Source: Escherichia coli (GTDB lineage: Bacteria; Pseudomonadota; Gammaproteobacteria; Enterobacterales; Enterobacteriaceae). From it: a stretch of 64,000 bases of DNA. Under the pieces are notes generated by a model, which searched no databases, was not told where the DNA came from, and worked only from the letters and a program-made list of their open reading frames with translations. The position numbers were made by a program, and so were the translations under genes. The stretch is taken from the NCBI RefSeq assembly GCF_009931435.1, contig NZ_CP043414.1; one strand, given 5' to 3'. This document shows, piece by piece, positions 3,417 to 28,730 of this stretch (its first letter is position 1; the number at the start of each line of letters is the position of its first letter).

Positions 3417-4868
3417 ATGGAGTCATCCTTACGTATTGTCGCGATCACCAACTGCCCCGCCGGGATCGCTCACACCTACATGGTGGCGGAAGCCCTGGAA
3501 CAGAAAGCCCGTTCTCTCGGTCATACCATTAAAGTTGAAACTCAAGGATCAAGCGGCGTCGAAAACCGCTTATCCAGCGAAGAGATTGCCGCTGCCGATT
3601 ACGTGATTCTCGCTACCGGGCGTGGCCTGAGCGGTGATGATCGCGCGCGATTTGCCGGGAAAAAGGTTTATGAGATTGCCATCTCCCAGGCGCTGAAAAA
3701 TATCGACCAGATTTTCAGTGAATTACCGACAAACTCACAACTTTTTGCCGCAGATAGCGGCGTGAAGCTCGGCAAACAGGAAGTGCAAAGTGGCAGCGTA
3801 ATGAGCCATCTGATGGCGGGCGTCTCTGCGGCGCTGCCGTTTGTCATCGGTGGCGGTATCCTGGTGGCGCTTGCCAACATGCTGGTGCAGTTCGGTTTGC
3901 CGTATACCGATATGTCGAAAGGTGCGCCGTCGTTTACCTGGGTGGTTGAATCCATCGGTTATCTCGGTTTCACCTTTATGATCCCCATCATGGGCGCTTA
4001 TATTGCCTCGTCGATAGCCGATAAACCCGCTTTCGCTCCGGCGTTTCTGGTTTGCTATCTGGCGAACGACAAAGCCATGCTCGGCACCCAGTCTGGCGCG
4101 GGCTTCCTCGGTGCGGTGGTGCTGGGGCTGGCGATTGGCTATTTCGTCTTCTGGTTCCGTAAAGTCCGTCTCGGCAAAGCGTTACAACCGCTGCTCGGTT
4201 CCATGCTTATCCCGTTCGTTACTCTGCTGGTTTTTGGCGTACTGACTTACTACGTTATCGGACCGGTGATGTCCGACCTCATGGGCGGGTTGCTGCACTT
4301 CCTGAACACCATTCCTCCGTCAATGAAGTTTGCGGCGGCGTTTCTGGTTGGTGCGATGCTGGCATTCGATATGGGCGGCCCCATCAACAAAACCGCCTGG
4401 TTCTTCTGCTTCTCTCTGCTGGAAAAACACATTTACGACTGGTACGCCATCGTCGGCGTTGTCGCGCTAATGCCGCCTGTCGCGGCGGGTCTTGCGACGT
4501 TCATTGCGCCCAAACTGTTTACTCAACAGGAAAAAGAAGCCGCCAGTAGCGCCATAGTGGTCGGTGCCACAGTCGCAACCGAACCGGCTATTCCTTACGC
4601 TCTGGCCGCTCCGTTACCGATGATTACCGCCAACACGCTGGCGGGCGGTATTACCGGCGTGCTGGTGATCGCTTTCGGAATCAAACGGCTGGCACCGGGT
4701 TTGGGTATCTTTGACCCGCTGATCGGCCTGATGTCGCCGGTAGGTTCATTTTATCTGGTGCTGGCGATTGGCCTCGCGCTGAACATTTCATTCATTATCG
4801 TCCTGAAAGGATTATGGTTACGCCGCAAAGCCAAAGCTGCGCAACAGGAGCTTGTCCATGAACATTGA
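3417..4868 (+). CDS. frvB: PTS fructose-like IIBC component
   Basis: Large polytopic membrane ORF directly after frvA; start taken at MESSLRIV to give 483 aa (start +/- 2 codons). Confidence 0.9.
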   Translation: MESSLRIVAITNCPAGIAHTYMVAEALEQKARSLGHTIKVETQGSSGVENRLSSEEIAAADYVILATGRGLSGDDRARFAGKKVYEIAISQALKNIDQIFSELPTNSQLFAADSGVKLGKQEVQSGSVMSHLMAGVSAALPFVIGGGILVALANMLVQFGLPYTDMSKGAPSFTWVVESIGYLGFTFMIPIMGAYIASSIADKPAFAPAFLVCYLANDKAMLGTQSGAGFLGAVVLGLAIGYFVFWFRKVRLGKALQPLLGSMLIPFVTLLVFGVLTYYVIGPVMSDLMGGLLHFLNTIPPSMKFAAAFLVGAMLAFDMGGPINKTAWFFCFSLLEKHIYDWYAIVGVVALMPPVAAGLATFIAPKLFTQQEKEAASSAIVVGATVATEPAIPYALAAPLPMITANTLAGGITGVLVIAFGIKRLAPGLGIFDPLIGLMSPVGSFYLVLAIGLALNISFIIVLKGLWLRRKAKAAQQELVHEH

Positions 4869-5928
4869 GTTACTGCAACAGTTGTGCGAAGCCAGCGCCG
4901 TCAGCGGCGATGAACAGGAAGTTCGCGACATTCTGATAAACACGCTGGAACCCTGCGTGAATGAGATCACCTTCGATGGTCTGGGCAGCTTTGTTGCCCG
5001 TAAGGGGAATAAAGGTCCAAAAGTTGTTGTTGTCGGGCATATGGATGAAGTCGGCTTTATGGTCACCCACATCGATGAGAGCGGTTTTCTGCGCTTCACC
5101 ACCATTGGCGGCTGGTGGAATCAGTCGATGCTCAACCACCGGGTAACCATACGCACACACAAGGGATTTAAAATCCCTGGTGTAATTGGCTCCGTCGCGC
5201 CACATGCGTTAACCGAAAAGCAAAAGCAACAACCGCTGTCATTTGATGAGATGTTCATTGATATTGGCGCAAACAGTCGCGAAGAAGCGGAAAAACGTGG
5301 CGTGGAAATTGGCGATTTTATTAGCCCGGAAGCCAATTTTGCCTGCTGGGGCGAAGATAAAGTGGTCGGCAAGGCGTTGGATAACCGCATCGGCTGCGCA
5401 ATGATGGCTGAACTATTGCAGACGGTGAATAACCCCGAAATTACGCTTTATGGCGTTGGCAGTGTGGAAGAAGAAGTTGGGCTACGCGGGGCACAAACCT
5501 CGGCTGAACACATTAAACCGGATGTGGTGATCGTGCTGGATACCGCTGTCGCGGGCGATGTTCCAGGCATTGATAACATTAAATATCCGCTGAAACTGGG
5601 CAACGGGCCGGGGCTGATGCTGTTTGACAAGCGCTACTTCCCCAACCAGAAACTGGTAGCAGCGTTAAAAAGCTGTGCCACGCAGAATGATTTACCGCTG
5701 CAATTTTCCACTATGAAAACCGGTGCGACGGATGGCGGGCGCTACAACGTGATGGGCGGCGGACGTCCGGTTGTCGCGCTGTGCCTGCCAACGCGTTATC
5801 TGCACGCCAATAGCGGTATGATTTCAAAAGCCGATTACGATGCTCTGCTCACGTTGATAAGGGATTTTCTGACCACTTTAACCGCGGAGAAAGTCAACGC
5901 GTTTAGCCAGTTCCGTCAGGTGGATTAA
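4858..5928 (+). CDS. frvX: Putative aminopeptidase / cellulase-family protein FrvX
   Basis: 356 aa ORF (MNIELLQQLCEASAVSGDEQ...) with metallopeptidase-like HMDEVGF segment; overlaps frvB end; position in frv operon. Confidence 0.9.
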   Translation: MNIELLQQLCEASAVSGDEQEVRDILINTLEPCVNEITFDGLGSFVARKGNKGPKVVVVGHMDEVGFMVTHIDESGFLRFTTIGGWWNQSMLNHRVTIRTHKGFKIPGVIGSVAPHALTEKQKQQPLSFDEMFIDIGANSREEAEKRGVEIGDFISPEANFACWGEDKVVGKALDNRIGCAMMAELLQTVNNPEITLYGVGSVEEEVGLRGAQTSAEHIKPDVVIVLDTAVAGDVPGIDNIKYPLKLGNGPGLMLFDKRYFPNQKLVAALKSCATQNDLPLQFSTMKTGATDGGRYNVMGGGRPVVALCLPTRYLHANSGMISKADYDALLTLIRDFLTTLTAEKVNAFSQFRQVD

Positions 5929-7676
5929 TGCTAAACGAACGCCAGTTAAAGATTGTCGATCTGCTGGAGCAACAGCCACGCACGCCTGGCGAGCTGGCGC
6001 AACAGACTGGCGTTTCTGGCAGGACCATCCTGCGTGATATTGACTATCTCAACTTTACCCTTAACGGCAAAGCCCGCATTTCCGCCAGTGGCAACGCGGG
6101 CTATCAGCTGGAAATCTTCGAGCGCCGCAGCTTTTTTCAGTTGCTGCAAAAGCACGATAACGACGATCGGCTGCTGGCGCTGTTATTACTGAATACCTTC
6201 ACTCCCCGTGCGCAACTCGCCTCGGCGCTTAATTTGCCAGAAACGTGGGTAGCAGAGCGCCTGCCCCGCCTGAAACAGCGCTATGAACGCGGTTTTTGTC
6301 TCGCTAGTCGCCCTGGTTTGGGCCATTTCATTGATGAGACAGAAGAGAAACGCATTATTTTGCTGGCGAATCTTTTACGCAAAGATCCGTTTTTAATTCC
6401 GCTGTCGGGAGTAACACGAGACAATTTTCAACAATTAACCACCGCCTGCGAAAAGCAACGTCGCTGGCCGCTGATGCAAGGCGACTATCTCTCAAGCCTG
6501 ATTCTGGCTATTTACGCGTTGCGTAATCAGCTTACTGACATATGGCCTGAATATCCCGGTAGCGAGATAAAACAGATCGTTGAATATAGCGGCCTGTTTC
6601 TTGGTGATAATGCTGTAAGAACGTTGACGGGGTTGATAGAAAAACAGCATCAACAGGCGCAGGTTATTTGTGTCGATAATGTGCTGGCATTGCTGCAAAG
6701 GGTGCCGGGCATTGCGTCATTGAATATTATTGATACGCAACTGGTTGAGAATATTACCGGGCATTTATTACGTTGCCTTGCCGCGCCGGTGTGGATTGGA
6801 GAGCACCGCCAAAGCAGCATGAATAACCTGAAAGCCGCCTGGCCTGCGGCCTTTGATATGAGTCTGCACTTTATTACGCTACTGCGTGAACAACTCGATA
6901 TTCCCCTTTTCGACAGCGATCTGATTGGTTTGTATTTTGCCTGTGCGCTGGAACGGCATCAAAACGAACGCCAGCCGATCATTTTGCTCTCTGATCAAAA
7001 CGCGATTGCCACTATTAATCAGCTCGCCATTGAGCGCGACGTCCTGAATTGTCGGGTGATTATTGCCCGCTGCTTAAGCGAACTGGTTGCCATTCGCGAA
7101 GAGATTGAGCCGTTATTGATCATTAATAACAGCCATTATTTACTGGATGACGCGGTCAATAATTGCATCATCGTAAAAAATATCATTACGGCTGCCGGTA
7201 TCGAACAAATAAAACATTTTCTGGCGACGGCATTTATTCGCCAGCAACCGGAGCGTTTTTTTTCTGCCCCCGGAAGTTTTCATTATTCGAATGTACGTGG
7301 TGAAAGCTGGCAACATATTACCCGGCAAATATGTGCGCAATTAGTGACGCAACACCACATTACCGCCGATGAAGCACAACGGATCATCGCCCGCGAAAGC
7401 GAAGGCGAAAACCTGATTGTTAATCGTCTCGCCATCCCACATTGCTGGAGCGAACAGGAACGCCGTTTTCGTGGATTTTTTATTACCCTCGCCCAACCGG
7501 TTGAGGTGAATAACGAAGTAGTTAACCATGTACTGATCGCCTGTGCCGCCGCCGATGCGCGTCATGAGCTAAAAATATTTAGCTATCTTGCCAGCGTATT
7601 GTGTCAGCATCCGGCAGAGGTTATTGCCGGGTTAACAGGATATGAGGCATTTATGGAGTTACTTCACAAGGGGTGA
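5928..7676 (+). CDS. frvR: frv operon transcriptional regulator
   Basis: 582 aa ORF, N-terminal HTH-like region, start codon overlapping frvX stop (TAATG at 5926-5930). Confidence 0.9.
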   Translation: MLNERQLKIVDLLEQQPRTPGELAQQTGVSGRTILRDIDYLNFTLNGKARISASGNAGYQLEIFERRSFFQLLQKHDNDDRLLALLLLNTFTPRAQLASALNLPETWVAERLPRLKQRYERGFCLASRPGLGHFIDETEEKRIILLANLLRKDPFLIPLSGVTRDNFQQLTTACEKQRRWPLMQGDYLSSLILAIYALRNQLTDIWPEYPGSEIKQIVEYSGLFLGDNAVRTLTGLIEKQHQQAQVICVDNVLALLQRVPGIASLNIIDTQLVENITGHLLRCLAAPVWIGEHRQSSMNNLKAAWPAAFDMSLHFITLLREQLDIPLFDSDLIGLYFACALERHQNERQPIILLSDQNAIATINQLAIERDVLNCRVIIARCLSELVAIREEIEPLLIINNSHYLLDDAVNNCIIVKNIITAAGIEQIKHFLATAFIRQQPERFFSAPGSFHYSNVRGESWQHITRQICAQLVTQHHITADEAQRIIARESEGENLIVNRLAIPHCWSEQERRFRGFFITLAQPVEVNNEVVNHVLIACAAADARHELKIFSYLASVLCQHPAEVIAGLTGYEAFMELLHKG

Positions 7677-8941: not shown

Positions 8942-9775
8942 TTAATTACTCAAACGCTGCGGATGGGTATAAACCGTTGCCCGACCCGGCTTACAAAAGC
9001 CCACCAGCGTCAAATTACAGCGCTCAGCCACTTCTACGGCAAGCGTGGTCGCGGCAGACACCGCAAACAAAATTTCTACGCCGCACATCGCTGACTTTTG
9101 CACCATTTCATAACTGGCACGACTGGAAACCAGCACCGCACCTTGCTGCCAGCTTTCCCCTTCTTGTGACCGGCGGCCTAACAGTTTATCCAGCGCCACA
9201 TGGCGACCCACGTCTTCATGCCCGCCTACCAGTTCGCCAGATGGCAACATCCAGGCAGCGGCGTGAGTACAACCAGTCAGTTGCCCCACTGGCTGGAAAT
9301 CATTGAGATGGCGTAATGCATCATCCAGTTTGTTGAGATCAAATGTCTGAGTGAACGGCAGCGGCTGCACCGGTTTACCGATGTCATTAAGTTGCTCCAC
9401 GCCGCACACACCACATCCCGTACGTCCCGCCAGTGCCCGACGACGCTCCTTCAACCCCATAAAGCGGCGGCTGGAAAGCTCAATTTGCACTTCCAGACCA
9501 TTACAGGAAGGAACGACATCCATACCGAAGATATCGCGCGGACTTTCGATAATCCCCTCGGAAAGCGAAAAACCGAGCGCAAAGTATTCAAGGTCTTTGG
9601 GCGACGCCATCATCACCACATGCGAAATGCCGTTGTAGACCAGCGCAACGGGAACCTCTTCCGCCACCTCATCTAACCGTGGGTGTTGTAAATCGTCACG
9701 CCGCCATAACTCAATTTGACGAACACCTGTGACATTTGTCACATTTTTGATTTCTTTTTGCTGTGTTTTTTTCAC
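8942..9775 (-). CDS. fdhD: Formate dehydrogenase accessory sulfurtransferase FdhD
   Basis: 277 aa [31 protein letters not shown]... recognised as FdhD; divergent from fdoG. Confidence 0.95.
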
Positions 9776-21834: not shown

Positions 21835-22620
21835 CTACGCGTCTTCCTGGGGAAGGATGATTTCAATTTGGCTGTCTTGTAAGCGTGATTTTAGCGCAGC
21901 GGGCGGCAGCTCGTCGGTAAAGAGCGCAGTGACCTGTGCCACGTTACCAATTTCAACCGCCGCCGAAGCATGATACTTAGTGTGATCGGCGACCAGCAGA
22001 ATATTTCTCGCGTGCGCCATCATCGTTTTCACCACGTTAGCTTCGTTTACATCAAACTCCATCAACGCGCCATCGCTCTCAATCGCCCCAACGCTTGTTA
22101 CCAGATAATCAGCCCGAAAATCGGCCACAAAGGAAGCCGCTGAAGGGCCAATGATCCCGCTATTATGAGAGCGCAACGTACCGCCGGGCACCATCACTTC
22201 AAAGCGCGGGTTGTGGTACAGAATATGCGCCACACGCAGGCTGTTCGTGATTATCCGCAAATGATTATGGTTAAGTAACGCCCGGGCGACATGTTCGACA
22301 GTCGTACCGATGGTGATAAATATTGTCGATCCATCAGGAATATAGTCTGCCACCGCTTCGGCAATCGCTTTTTTCTCTTCAGTTTGCGAAACCTCACGCT
22401 GTTCGAACGCCGTATTAACGACGCTGGAGGCCCGACCCGCGCCACCGTGATGGCGCGTGATCAGCCCTTGCTCGCTTAATTTACGAATATCCCGGCGGAC
22501 CGTCTGCGTGGAAACATCCAGCAGATTTGCCAGCTCATCAATATTCATATACCCACGCTCGGCGATCAGCATGAGGAGTTGGTCGTGCCGCGGGTTACCG
22601 GTCAGTTCGGTAAGGCTCAT
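21835..22620 (-). CDS. csqR: DeoR-family repressor of the sulfoquinovose operon
   Basis: DeoR-type HTH (IDELANLLDVSTQTVRRDIRKL); start chosen at MSLTELTG, which has GAGG upstream (261 aa). Also known as yihW. Confidence 0.9.
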   Translation of the reverse strand: MSLTELTGNPRHDQLLMLIAERGYMNIDELANLLDVSTQTVRRDIRKLSEQGLITRHHGGAGRASSVVNTAFEQREVSQTEEKKAIAEAVADYIPDGSTIFITIGTTVEHVARALLNHNHLRIITNSLRVAHILYHNPRFEVMVPGGTLRSHNSGIIGPSAASFVADFRADYLVTSVGAIESDGALMEFDVNEANVVKTMMAHARNILLVADHTKYHASAAVEIGNVAQVTALFTDELPPAALKSRLQDSQIEIILPQEDA

Positions 22621-22653
22621 GAAAATTCCTCGAAAAACCATCACCCTGGCATT

Positions 22654-23550
22654 TTATACAAAAAGTGACAAAAAAGATCGGGTTTGATCACAGTCAGGGA
22701 TCCCGGCACGCCCACCGGGACGCGTGCATTTTAACGCCGCCACACCGCTGGCAAAGCGGACGGAATCCGCTAAATCTCCACCTGTTGCCAGCGCCACCGC
22801 CAATGCGCCGTGAAAAACATCGCCCGCACCGGTAGTATCTACCACATCAACTTTGAAAGCTGGCTGATGCTGTCGCCCGCCATTCTCCAGCCAGTCACAG
22901 CCTGCACTGCCCTGAGTAACATAGACATGTCCATTTGTGATCGTTTGTGCCTGTTTTAGGGCACTCGCCATCTCTTTCACGCCCGTTAGCCGCGCCAGAC
23001 CCGGTTCTGAAAAAGCGGCATGATCGCTTAACGCCACCAGCTCACTGATATCCTGCGGCGTAATATCACCGTCCAGCACGGTCATCACGCCCACCTGCCG
23101 GGCCAGGGTGAAGGCTTTTTTCGCGCCGTCGTGCCAGCGTACATCTGCCAGCACCACGTCCCACTGAGAGAAATCAATTTCCTCCAACCACTCTGCGTCA
23201 GGCAGCAGGTCCGGGCTGGGATAGTTAATGATGATTCGCTCGCCTTTGGCATCCACCATGATGGCGGATTGCGAAGATTTCGCCTGGTTATACCGTTTGG
23301 TGTAACGGGTGTTAACGCCCCAGGATTCCAGCTCTGCCAGCAGGCTGTTGCCCGTGTCGTCGTCACCGACGCGACCAATAAAATCGACCTGCGCACCCAG
23401 TCTGGCCGCCGCAACTGCTGCTGTAGCCGCTGGCCCGCCGCCAACTTCCGTATAATTTTTTGCCACGTACTTACCGCTCTCCGTCGGCAACCCTTCCACG
23501 TAATAGATGCGATCCATCACGGTAATTCCTACACAAGCAACACGAATCAT
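22654..23550 (-). CDS. yihV: 6-deoxy-6-sulfofructose kinase (PfkB family)
   Basis: PfkB/ribokinase-like ORF (GAGDVFHGALAVALA motif); start taken at MIRVACVG (298 aa). Confidence 0.9.
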   Translation of the reverse strand: MIRVACVGITVMDRIYYVEGLPTESGKYVAKNYTEVGGGPAATAAVAAARLGAQVDFIGRVGDDDTGNSLLAELESWGVNTRYTKRYNQAKSSQSAIMVDAKGERIIINYPSPDLLPDAEWLEEIDFSQWDVVLADVRWHDGAKKAFTLARQVGVMTVLDGDITPQDISELVALSDHAAFSEPGLARLTGVKEMASALKQAQTITNGHVYVTQGSAGCDWLENGGRQHQPAFKVDVVDTTGAGDVFHGALAVALATGGDLADSVRFASGVAALKCTRPGGRAGIPDCDQTRSFLSLFV

Positions 23551-23556
23551 GGTCAT

Positions 23557-23717
23557 TCCTTAAGCATTTTGGGATGCGTTCATTTTAATTTCACCAATTG
23601 TTTAAAAAGTGACGGCTGTCAATTTTTTGACGATAAATTACAAATACGATCAAAAACAGACAAGCAAGGCATGTCATAAATGACAAAAAGTGACATCACT
23701 GTATTCAGGAGAGGGTT
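23557..23717. promoter_or_regulatory. Divergent yihV / yihU promoter region with repeated AAAAAGTGAC motifs (candidate CsqR operators)
   Basis: AAAAAGTGAC at 23603-23612 and 23685-23694; palindrome TGTCATAAATGACA at 23669-23682; a third AAAAAGTGAC copy at 22660-22669 upstream of csqR. Confidence 0.5.
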
Positions 23718-24614
23718 ATGGCAGCAATCGCGTTTATCGGTTTAGGACAAATGGGTTCGCCAATGGCGAGCAATTTATTGCAGCAAGGGCATCAACTTTG
23801 CGTCTTCGATGTGAATGCCGAAGCCGTACAGCATCTGGTAGACAAAGGGGCGACTCCCGCTGCTAACCCAGCGCAGGCCGCTAAAGGTGCCGAATTTATC
23901 ATTACCATGTTGCCGAATGGCGATCTGGTGCGTCACGTGTTGTTCGGTGAAAACGGTGTCTGTGAGAGCTTATCTTCCGATGCGCTGGTCATTGATATGT
24001 CGACCATCCACCCGCTGCAAACCGATAAATTGATTGCTGATATGCAGGCCAGAGGCTTCAGCATGATGGATGTTCCGGTTGGCCGTACTTCCGCAAATGC
24101 CATTACCGGTACTCTGCTACTGCTGGCTGGCGGCACTGCTGAACAAGTTGAACGCGCCACGCCGATCCTGATGGCGATGGGCAGCGAGTTGATCAACGCG
24201 GGCGGTCCGGGCATGGGGATCCGCGTTAAGCTCATCAACAACTATATGAGTATCGCGCTCAATGCGCTTTCGGCAGAAGCTGCCGTTTTGTGCGAAGCCC
24301 TCAATCTTCCCTTCGATGTTGCCGTCAAGGTAATGAGCGGTACTGCCGCCGGTAAAGGCCACTTCACCACTTCCTGGCCGAACAAAGTCCTCAGCGGAGA
24401 TCTTTCTCCCGCCTTCATGATCGATCTTGCCCATAAGGATCTTGGCATCGCCCTTGATGTCGCCAACCAGTTGCATGTGCCGATGCCACTGGGGGCCGCC
24501 TCACGGGAGGTTTATAGCCAGGCGCGCGCAGCGGGTCGCGGTCGCCAGGACTGGTCCGCCATTCTGGAGCAGGTCCGTGTCAGTGCCGGGATGACTGCCA
24601 AAGTAAAAATGTAA
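23718..24614 (+). CDS. yihU: 3-sulfolactaldehyde reductase (NAD-binding, 3-hydroxyisobutyrate dehydrogenase-like)
   Basis: 298 aa ORF with N-terminal Rossmann motif [14 protein letters not shown]. Confidence 0.95.
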
Positions 24615-27854: not shown

Positions 27855-28730
27855 ATGGACTTTTTTACGTTATTTTCGCCGGATGGGGCCATGGTGGAAA
27901 CAAGCGTGGTATGTATCGTTATCGCGTTAATGTTTCTTTATACCTTTGTGGGGATATGCGCGGGATTTGGCGGTGGTTTAACCACCATGCCGCTCGTCAC
28001 GTTAATGCTCCCCGTAAAAATGGCAACACCACTTTCGGTAATTGTCGGCACCGCAACCGCCTTGTACGCCACCTGGCTGTCACGTAAAGAAACGGATTGG
28101 CGATCGGCAATGGTACTGATTATTTTCTCGTTTCTGGGAATACCCGTCGGTTTATATGCGCTGTCGTATTTACCCGACCATTTTATGAAAGTGGGCTTAG
28201 GCGGATTCCTTATCCTTTACTCGTTTTACAGCATGTTTATTCCTCGCCTGCCGATTTATGACCGTAACTGGATCGCCGCACCTATCGGCGCAGTAGCTGG
28301 TGCATTAGGCGCGGCGTTCTCAACCAACGGGCCGCCGATGGTTATCTACGGGATGCTGCGTAACTTAGGTCCGGCGGCATTTCGCGGCACACTGAACGCC
28401 TTCTTCACCGCAAACAACATCGCGGTGATCGGCGGGCTGGCGACCAGCGGAATTTTGACTGTTTCTATCTTTAAACTGGTGCTGTTTTGTATTCCCACCA
28501 TGATCCTCGGTTCACTGATTGGACAATATGTGCATAAACGCATTTCGGTCAAAGTGTTTCGTGTGATGGTCTTTTTATTGTTGATTGCCTCCGGTTCTAT
28601 GTTGATAAAAGGTGCGTTGGGAATTCCCGCCGCTGCCGCACTTCTGCCTCCGTTTACCTTGTTAGTTATACTGCAACTGGCATTTGGTAAAAAAGTGGCT
28701 GCAATCCGCCGAGCTGAAGAAAGTAAATAA
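27855..28730 (+). CDS. TauE/SafE-family (DUF81) membrane transporter, putative sulfite/sulfonate exporter
   Basis: 291 aa polytopic ORF with the family-typical Gly-rich TM motif (FVGICAGFGGGLTTMPLV) and internal duplication; sits between yihR and yihQ, where I recall K-12 having no gene. Confidence 0.75.
   Translation: MDFFTLFSPDGAMVETSVVCIVIALMFLYTFVGICAGFGGGLTTMPLVTLMLPVKMATPLSVIVGTATALYATWLSRKETDWRSAMVLIIFSFLGIPVGLYALSYLPDHFMKVGLGGFLILYSFYSMFIPRLPIYDRNWIAAPIGAVAGALGAAFSTNGPPMVIYGMLRNLGPAAFRGTLNAFFTANNIAVIGGLATSGILTVSIFKLVLFCIPTMILGSLIGQYVHKRISVKVFRVMVFLLLIASGSMLIKGALGIPAAAALLPPFTLLVILQLAFGKKVAAIRRAEESK

Follow-up and report, generated by a model that had tools for sequence, protein, structure and literature searches.

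Which bases does CsqR, the repressor of the sulfoquinovose genes, contact in the regions that it controls, and does a 10-mer repeated at the csqR, yihV, and yihU promoters mark them? Few organosulfur compounds are more abundant than sulfoquinovose, and the model sulfoglycolysis pathway is the one encoded by the yih cassette. In E. coli K-12, the targets of repression by CsqR (YihW) are yihUTS, yihV, and csqR itself (Shimada et al. 2019, as relayed in PMC8249747, PMC8006165, and PMC12608037). In the gSELEX and EMSA experiments described in these three papers, purified CsqR showed strong binding at the yihU/V spacer and weak binding in the region upstream of csqR. The complexes are large, cooperative, and multimeric and are dissolved by sulfoquinovose, and the protein is regarded as having a single target (PMC8249747, PMC8006165, PMC10991401, and PMC12608037). 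CsqR reportedly exists as a monomer in solution and binds DNA with high cooperativity. An operator sequence is stated in none of PMC8249747, PMC8006165, PMC12608037, or PMC8464067, which describe binding at the level of fragments or as a 41-bp ChIP-exo interval.

We analyzed a 64-kb stretch of Escherichia DNA (the window) that carries the sulfoquinovose (yih) cassette. The genes that flank the two control regions are as follows.

21835-22620, minus strand: csqR (yihW), ATG at 22620, encoding a DeoR-family repressor of 261 amino acids (from the translation and the annotations of the closest strain and of K-12)
22654-23550, minus strand: yihV, sulfofructose kinase (open reading frame and annotation)
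23718-24614, plus strand: yihU, sulfolactaldehyde reductase, first gene of yihUTS

The csqR product has the Pfam domains HTH_DeoR and DeoRC. Downstream of yihU, the order is yihT, yihS, yihR, and a TauE-family gene, followed by yihQ, yihP, yihO, and ompL. The last 13 codons of yihV hold the csqR promoter, and yihV and yihU are separated by a spacer of 167 bp that differs from the K-12 spacer at 3 of 167 positions. Because no consensus promoter turned up there in a simple scan, we took promoter positions from published start sites (PMC5816610).

The original prediction was that the 10-mer AAAAAGTGAC represents CsqR operator half-sites that link autoregulation to control of both operons. Exact copies occur three times in the window, all on the plus strand, and all three are identical in K-12. 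The assignment of the copies to genes held, with one inside the end of yihV (40 bp upstream of the csqR start codon) and two in the yihV/yihU spacer, as did two of the three positions; the middle copy, previously given as 23603-23612, lies one base further on.

22660-22669, plus strand: site 1, an exact copy of AAAAAGTGAC within the csqR promoter (-13 to -22)
23604-23627, both strands: site 2 palindrome AAAAAGTGAC-GGCT-GTCAATTTTT, 24 bp, consisting of the exact 10-mer (23604-23613) and an inverted copy
23685-23694, plus strand: site 3, an exact copy of AAAAAGTGAC within the yihU leader (-33 to -24 from the ATG)

The enrichment in the window is genuine: dinucleotide-preserving shuffles (n = 100) gave a mean of 0.18 copies and a maximum of 2, none of them reaching 3, and the remaining 62.8 kb of the window contains no copy. 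In unrelated E. coli K-12 DNA, we counted 3 copies in 243 kb (~12 per Mb), which extrapolates, with a wide error, to ~57 (about 50) copies per genome. Thus, AAAAAGTGAC is not rare genome-wide, yet three copies within 1,035 bp far exceed chance. A looser word, AAAAANNGAC, matches the window nine times, with five of the nine matches inside the two control regions.

Genomic frequency counted against the 10-mer as a sufficient signal. The K-12 fsr upstream region carries AAAAAGTGAC together with ACAAATAAGATC, yet no CsqR peak has been reported there; isolated copies are evidently insufficient for binding. Given ~50 extrapolated copies and a single-target regulator, the 10-mer alone is not the address. 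The minor CsqR gSELEX peaks at trxB, yeaC, hyfB, and accC contain no exact motif, and the only single-mismatch copy among these four peaks, at trxB, is at chance level. Of the seven weak YihW ChIP-exo sites, we checked four (yafO, ssuE, ansP, and glpA), and both the 10-mer and A-tract/GAC units are absent from them.

For conservation, we used a one-genome-per-species scan with CsqR, which gave 63 syntenic Enterobacterales loci with CsqR proteins 74 to 99% identical. Complete yihU-yihV-csqR junctions were present at 54 of these, and the window brought the comparison to 55 sequences. A spacer block of ~80 to 85 bp (23582-23662) is 84 to 100% conserved except at a few spacer positions. Since the whole ~85-bp block is conserved, conservation does not by itself assign sites to CsqR. 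We also compared a diverged "short" cassette, which has 66% DNA identity and is found in ~1,300 E. coli genomes. Both CsqR variants bind the spacer of this cassette (PMC12608037).

The dominant YihW ChIP-exo site is at 4071641-4071681 in NC_000913.2, with a signal/noise ratio of 168 and yihV as the nearest gene, compared with ratios of 4 to 14 for the seven other sites (Gao et al. 2021, PMC8464067 supplement). We carried this interval to the window via K-12, with an uncertainty of about 2 bp, using a shift of 1977 bp from NC_000913.2 to NC_000913.3 that was set by the yihV start site coordinate in PMC5816610. The mapped interval, 23631-23671, lies between sites 2 and 3 and overlaps no exact 10-mer, and any shift from 1975 to 1979 leaves this outcome unchanged. 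The footprint therefore went against the original prediction. The interval, referred to here as the core, has the following features.

23631-23671, plus strand: CsqR-occupied core (YihW ChIP-exo site 8), with four 10-bp-phased units, CGATAAATTA, CAAATACGAT, CAAAAACAGA, and CAAGCAAGGC; TACAAATACGATCAAAAAC is a stretch of it
23648-23651, both strands: GATC, the sole GATC of the spacer
23652-23661, plus strand: AAAAACAGAC, a variant matching the 10-mer at 8 of 10 positions, exact in 37 of 55 species

Core positions 23633-23662 are 84 to 100% conserved across the 55 species. The short cassette keeps 28 of 30 core positions, with ATAAATTACAAATATGCTCAAAAACAGAC almost unchanged. The core overlies the -10 element and the start of the yihU -62 promoter and is just downstream of the -82 and -92 starts. 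Methylation data are consistent with a protein that stably occupies the core: among the few fully nonmethylated sites in Salmonella is a regulatory GATC of yihU, at -66 (PMC7708049, Table 1), and a yihU/yihV noncoding GATC is among 66 variably methylated sites in E. coli (PMC5155068). Judging by position, both reports would concern the GATC at 23648-23651. The short cassette and a few genera lack this GATC, which is thus not required. We concluded that CsqR makes its primary in vivo contact with a related repeat that separates the intergenic copies of the 10-mer.

How the 10-mer relates to this repeat can be read from the phasing of the units. In 10-bp steps, the core and the csqR promoter both contain runs of C-AAAAA-NN-GA units, and AAAAAGTGAC corresponds to such a unit shifted by one base; read in this way, it is a circular permutation of the roughly 10-bp unit of the core. 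A5-6 tracts recur at ~10-bp spacing in both loci, and the flanking sites are 2 to 3 bp off phase relative to the core units. The top direct-repeat family in the window (D1), found without prior assumptions, pairs TACAAAAAGTGACAAAAA from site 1 with TACAAATACGATCAAAAA from the core. The pattern CAAAWA-N4-CAAAWA has two matches in 64 kb, at the core and the csqR promoter, versus 0.10 expected; there is one match in 243 kb of K-12 background, and at least 65 of 67 matches in 652 kb of orthologous loci are at control positions. A second pattern, ACAAAWAMGATC, matches the core and the csqR promoter and nowhere else in the window. These two patterns and the repeat register were all defined post hoc, after inspection of the sequence, and by plain Hamming comparison the site 1 array matches the core at 14 of 23 positions, a score that dozens of window positions reach. 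Hence, the kinship of the site 1 array and the core is suggestive, not proven. AAAAAGTGAC is best seen as one register of a ~10-bp repeat family whose most strongly occupied members differ from the exact copies. An assignment of AAAAAGTGAC to a sigma-70 -35 hexamer plus UP element was rejected, as its strand and spacing misfit every mapped promoter.

Site 1 lies in the csqR promoter, whose start site is at -27/-28 from the ATG (PMC5816610), within the yihV codons ...F L S L F V*. Its neighbors are as follows.

22651-22658, minus strand: csqR -10 element TATAAAAT (sequence and published start site), near-invariant across species
22657-22679, plus strand: tandem array TAC-AAAAAGTGAC-AAAAAAGATC, which fits both core patterns
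22683-22698, plus strand: CRP/FNR-like dyad TTTGATCACAGTCAGG, centered ~-42 to -43 from the csqR start and conserved in the alignment

The 10-mer is directly upstream of the -10 element. It is exact in 34 of 55 species and present as ATAAAGTGAC in 10 more, which is also its form in the short cassette (9 of 10 positions), and its GTGACA is invariant even in Leminorella and the short-cassette sequences. Across yihV codons 286-298, the majority-codon fraction is 0.88, versus 0.62 gene-wide (rank 1 of 199 windows of codons); this excess indicates that a noncoding constraint is superimposed on the end of yihV. For csqR, a conserved CRP site at -41.5 has been reported (PMC5816610); the dyad at 22683-22698 has three mismatches to TGTGA-N6-TCACA and by consensus count is no better than background. 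No YihW ChIP-exo peak is reported at the csqR promoter in the PMC8464067 supplement. Given its position at -13 to -22 and a tandem pattern like that of the core, site 1 is probably a weak autoregulatory CsqR operator.

Site 2 is more ambiguous. The start site of yihV is at -25/-27 from the ATG (PMC5816610), and its promoter has one recognizable element.

23582-23587, minus strand: yihV -10 element TAAAAT (from sequence), in columns that are 96 to 100% conserved

There is no usable -35 hexamer 17 bp upstream of TAAAAT, and site 2, at about -29 to -38, covers the -35 region. The exact 10-mer (43 of 55 spacers) is accompanied on the minus strand by an inverted copy with a single mismatch, AAAAATTGAC (23618-23627; 48 of 55), which the original prediction had missed. 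Both arms are 91 to 100% conserved around three variable central nucleotides. The center of the palindrome, 23615.5, is ~-38.5 to -40.5 from the yihV start and ~-40.5 from the yihU -62 start, within 1 to 3 bp of the canonical CRP spacing of -41.5.

Site 2 may be a CRP site, and its sequence can be read equally well as a CRP-type dyad. In the alternative that survives best, though we still consider it unlikely, site 2 is a class II CRP site that serves yihV and yihU in both directions. The 10-mer AAAAAGTGAC would then be no more than half of a CRP-like dyad (consensus AAATGTGA), and sites 1 and 3 would be chance lookalikes in a promoter spacer or leader; CsqR would bind only the core, where it would block yihU and hinder CRP or RNA polymerase. 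Written as a dyad, the palindrome is AGTGA-N6-TCAAT, with AGTGA and TCAA invariant in 55 species around a variable center, and Leminorella has AGTGA-N6-TCACT, nearer to the CRP consensus. The center lies at ~-40.5 from both starts, yihV has a good -10 element without a -35 hexamer, the ChIP-exo interval leaves out site 2, and CRP sites and band shifts have been reported on both fragments (PMC5816610). However, cAMP enhanced the CRP band shift by only ~30% in that study, the A and T tracts in both arms are 93 to 100% conserved, above what is usual for CRP flanks, and the right arm is degraded to TCGTG in the short cassette, where site 2 as a whole keeps 7 of 10 positions (AATTAGTGAT...GTCG). 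Site 2 also has three mismatches in 10 core positions. Counting mismatches to the CRP consensus is not discriminating, since 181 window positions have three or fewer, below the shuffle mean of 217. Sites 1 and 3 lack an acceptable second half-site, and the conservation of site 1 at -13 to -22 is left unexplained. CsqR and CRP could share site 2.

Site 3 is lineage specific. It falls at +30 to +39 in the transcript that starts at yihU -62 and is exact in 5 of 55 spacers, in Escherichia and three other genera only. Two further elements overlap it.

23681-23695, plus strand: TGACA-N5-TGACA, the conserved skeleton of site 3
23672-23685, both strands: inverted repeat TGTCATAAATGACA (TGTCAT-AA-ATGACA), with 6-nt arms

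The skeleton is more widespread than the exact 10-mer, with TGACA at 23681-23685 in 43 of 55 spacers and at 23691-23695 in 48 of 55; Enterobacter has lost the A-tract and kept TGACA. The short cassette replaces site 3 with an inverted TGTCA-N5-TGTCA, that is, the TGACA pair flipped at the same 10-bp spacing. The palindrome noted beside site 3 in the original prediction is present, but it occurs in only 2 of 55 orthologous spacers and is thus an Escherichia-specific inverted repeat rather than a conserved element.

These results bear on the original prediction in its literal form, in which the exact 10-mers are the primary CsqR half-sites, with one protomer per copy, coupling autoregulation to both operons. 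The repeat is real, and part of the operator interpretation stood. All three copies fall in exactly the two CsqR-bound fragments, for which binding is known at the fragment level; their positions suit repression, with site 1 in the csqR promoter, site 2 over the yihV -35 region, and site 3 in the yihU leader; sites 1 and 2 are conserved; and the two arms of site 2 would suit a dimer. Against this, the ChIP-exo peak and the Dam-protected GATC are between the copies and not on them, exact site 3 is confined to a few species, the extrapolated genomic copies are at odds with a single target, and both CsqR variants still bind a short-cassette spacer in which site 2 is degraded and site 3 replaced. 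We regard this reading as quite improbable, and at best the 10-mer is a flanking part of a control region that was already known. That the A-tract/GAC repeats are instead architectural, with phased A-tracts curving the DNA or binding a nucleoid protein and conserved for promoter geometry rather than for CsqR, is very improbable: the phased A5-6 tracts at both loci, an 85-bp conserved block that exceeds the need of one factor, and TGTCAATTTTTTG, which we take, in an unscored comparison, to be one mismatch from the IHF consensus WATCAANNNNTTR, are all compatible with it, but the non-A positions (GTGAC, TGTCA, and TACAAATACGATC) are conserved as well as the A-tracts, and CsqR cross-links at the spacer in vivo with a very high signal.

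The best explanation, which we hold with moderate confidence, is that the 10-mer is a genuine cis-element of CsqR-controlled yih DNA, as one register of the repeat and not as the operator half-site itself. The repeat unit would have a ~10-bp period, an A-tract followed by (T)GAC, and could be read as CAAAAANNGA or GAC-AAAAA. CsqR, a DeoR-type winged-helix protein, would nucleate on the near-invariant central spacer units at 23631-23671. The exact 10-mers would belong to the same family as flanking or secondary copies, placed over the yihV -35 region (site 2 and its inverted partner), in the yihU leader (site 3), and between the csqR -35 and -10 elements (site 1 and the adjoining ACAAAAAAGATC). 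Repression of yihV and csqR would then result from cooperative spread from the core or, at csqR, from weak independent binding; sulfoquinovose releases CsqR. The sequence anatomy with its conservation, the binding of CsqR to the two fragments, and the in vivo peak on the core are shown; any contact of CsqR with the exact 10-mers, the register of the repeat, and the spread along it are inferred.

A bolder version is that CsqR polymerizes along the ~10-bp A-tract/GAC array from an invariant 40-bp core, that the 10-mers are outer units extending to the yihV and csqR promoters, and that occupancy of the core keeps the GATC unmethylated. We consider this speculative and rather unlikely; if true, GATC protection by polymerized CsqR could add a heritable, Dam-dependent layer to the expression of the sulfoquinovose genes.

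Earlier publications already cover the inducers of CsqR and its cooperative binding to both regions, and the gain here is a refinement of a known single-target regulon. The favored explanation, in which the 10-mer is one register of the repeat, offers a testable model at the nucleotide level, with a core at 23631-23671, flanking 10-mers, and a weak tandem site at the csqR promoter; the conspicuous 10-mer is not where CsqR cross-links most strongly.

Within the DeoR family, GlpR binds tandem 10-bp half-sites, AgaR and IolR bind direct repeats, and UlaR and DeoR act as multimers. In the tandem operators of this family, short repeats are spaced about one helical turn apart and are occupied cooperatively by forms from dimers to octamers. 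The yih locus resembles these systems in that its candidate operators coincide with the core promoters of two divergently transcribed sugar-catabolic genes and the regulator also controls its own gene. None of the GlpR, DeoR, or AgaR boxes is known to resemble the proposed CsqR repeat, which combines an A-tract with (T)GAC. Another difference is that the repeats at the yih locus occur as both direct and inverted copies. With class II CRP promoters (TGTGA-N6-TCACA near -41.5), the locus shares AGTGA-N6-TCAAT at site 2, ~-40.5 from two divergent starts; it differs in that site 2 fits 7 of 10 core positions and that sites 1 and 3 have no CRP-like dyads. With Dam-protected GATCs at repressor operators, such as those of NanR-bound nanA and nanC in the same methylome studies, the locus shares a nonmethylated or variably methylated GATC, here inside a strongly occupied core; it differs in that CsqR is only the candidate for the protecting protein at yihU. 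The closest comparison is the K-12 CsqR system. The 10-mers of the window lie outside the 41-bp ChIP-exo interval published for K-12, but the two systems have the same locus, the same regulator, the same two bound fragments, the same cooperative multimeric binding, and the same release by sulfoquinovose.

The 167-bp spacer between yihV and yihU contains a single GATC (23648-23651), and this site lies within the CsqR ChIP-exo interval. Published reports describe a GATC upstream of yihU that is non-methylated in Salmonella and variably methylated in E. coli; the spacer GATC matches these reports in position. The csqR promoter has two GATCs (22676-22679 and 22686-22689), neither of which is among the published lists of non-methylated or variably methylated sites.

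The CsqR core of the spacer, which corresponds to this ChIP-exo interval, is retained in the spacer of a diverged form of the cassette:
L078 (E. coli FDAARGOS_1298) 5640-6800, diverged "short" yih cassette, 66% DNA identity

Among 5,426 complete genomes of E. coli, about 1,327 carry this cassette, which adjoins typA. Genes for an alcohol dehydrogenase and MFS transporters replace yihS through ompL, and inverted TGTCA repeats are found in the spacer close to yihU.

Two sequence elements of the csqR promoter, AAAAAGTGAC and ACAAATAAGATC, are both shared with a second region in K-12:
L079 (K-12) 4712-4745, minus strand, csqR-promoter-like elements upstream of fsr

Here, AAAAAGTGAC is 7 nt ahead of the fsr start codon, and ACAAATAAGATC is 12 nt upstream of AAAAAGTGAC. 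No CsqR binding has been reported at the K-12 fsr upstream region, which serves as a natural negative control for the two elements and CsqR binding.

The csqR reading frame is open upstream of the annotated ATG (22620) as far as a GTG at 22644 (window 22621-22644), and initiation at this GTG would give a product of 269 aa. Since the GTG is downstream of the mapped csqR transcription start (22647/22648), its position would allow the longer product. CsqR residues 52 to 261 are also encoded, with 100% identity to the window protein, by an 885-bp contig assigned to "Bacillus coahuilensis m4-4" (NZ_ABFU01000106.1), an assembly that has almost certainly been contaminated with Escherichia DNA.

Three further features of the window lie outside the CsqR-controlled promoters:
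9728-9743, perfect CRP consensus palindrome TGTGACATTTGTCACA, 0 mismatches
16621-18474, minus strand, ORF of 617 aa between yiiE and fabY
27855-28730, plus strand, TauE/SafE sulfite-exporter family gene (Pfam PF01925, E = 2e-35)

With coordinates transferred from the annotation of the closest strain, the palindrome belongs to the control region of the divergent genes fdhD and fdoG and is located at the fdhD 5′ end. Comparison of the 617-aa ORF with Pfam, NCBIfam, PADLOC, and PDB sequences gave no hit. The closest strain is annotated here with a transposase and a truncated hypothetical gene, and K-12 lacks the region. The ORF contains a CX5R motif (GCKSAKDRT) reminiscent of the active site found in phosphoinositide phosphatases of the IpgD/SopB type. 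The TauE/SafE-family gene, located between yihR and yihQ, is an additional gene within the sulfoquinovose cassette; the corresponding position in K-12 has only a 199-bp gap. This gene may provide an export step for sulfonate or sulfite that is absent from the K-12 model pathway.
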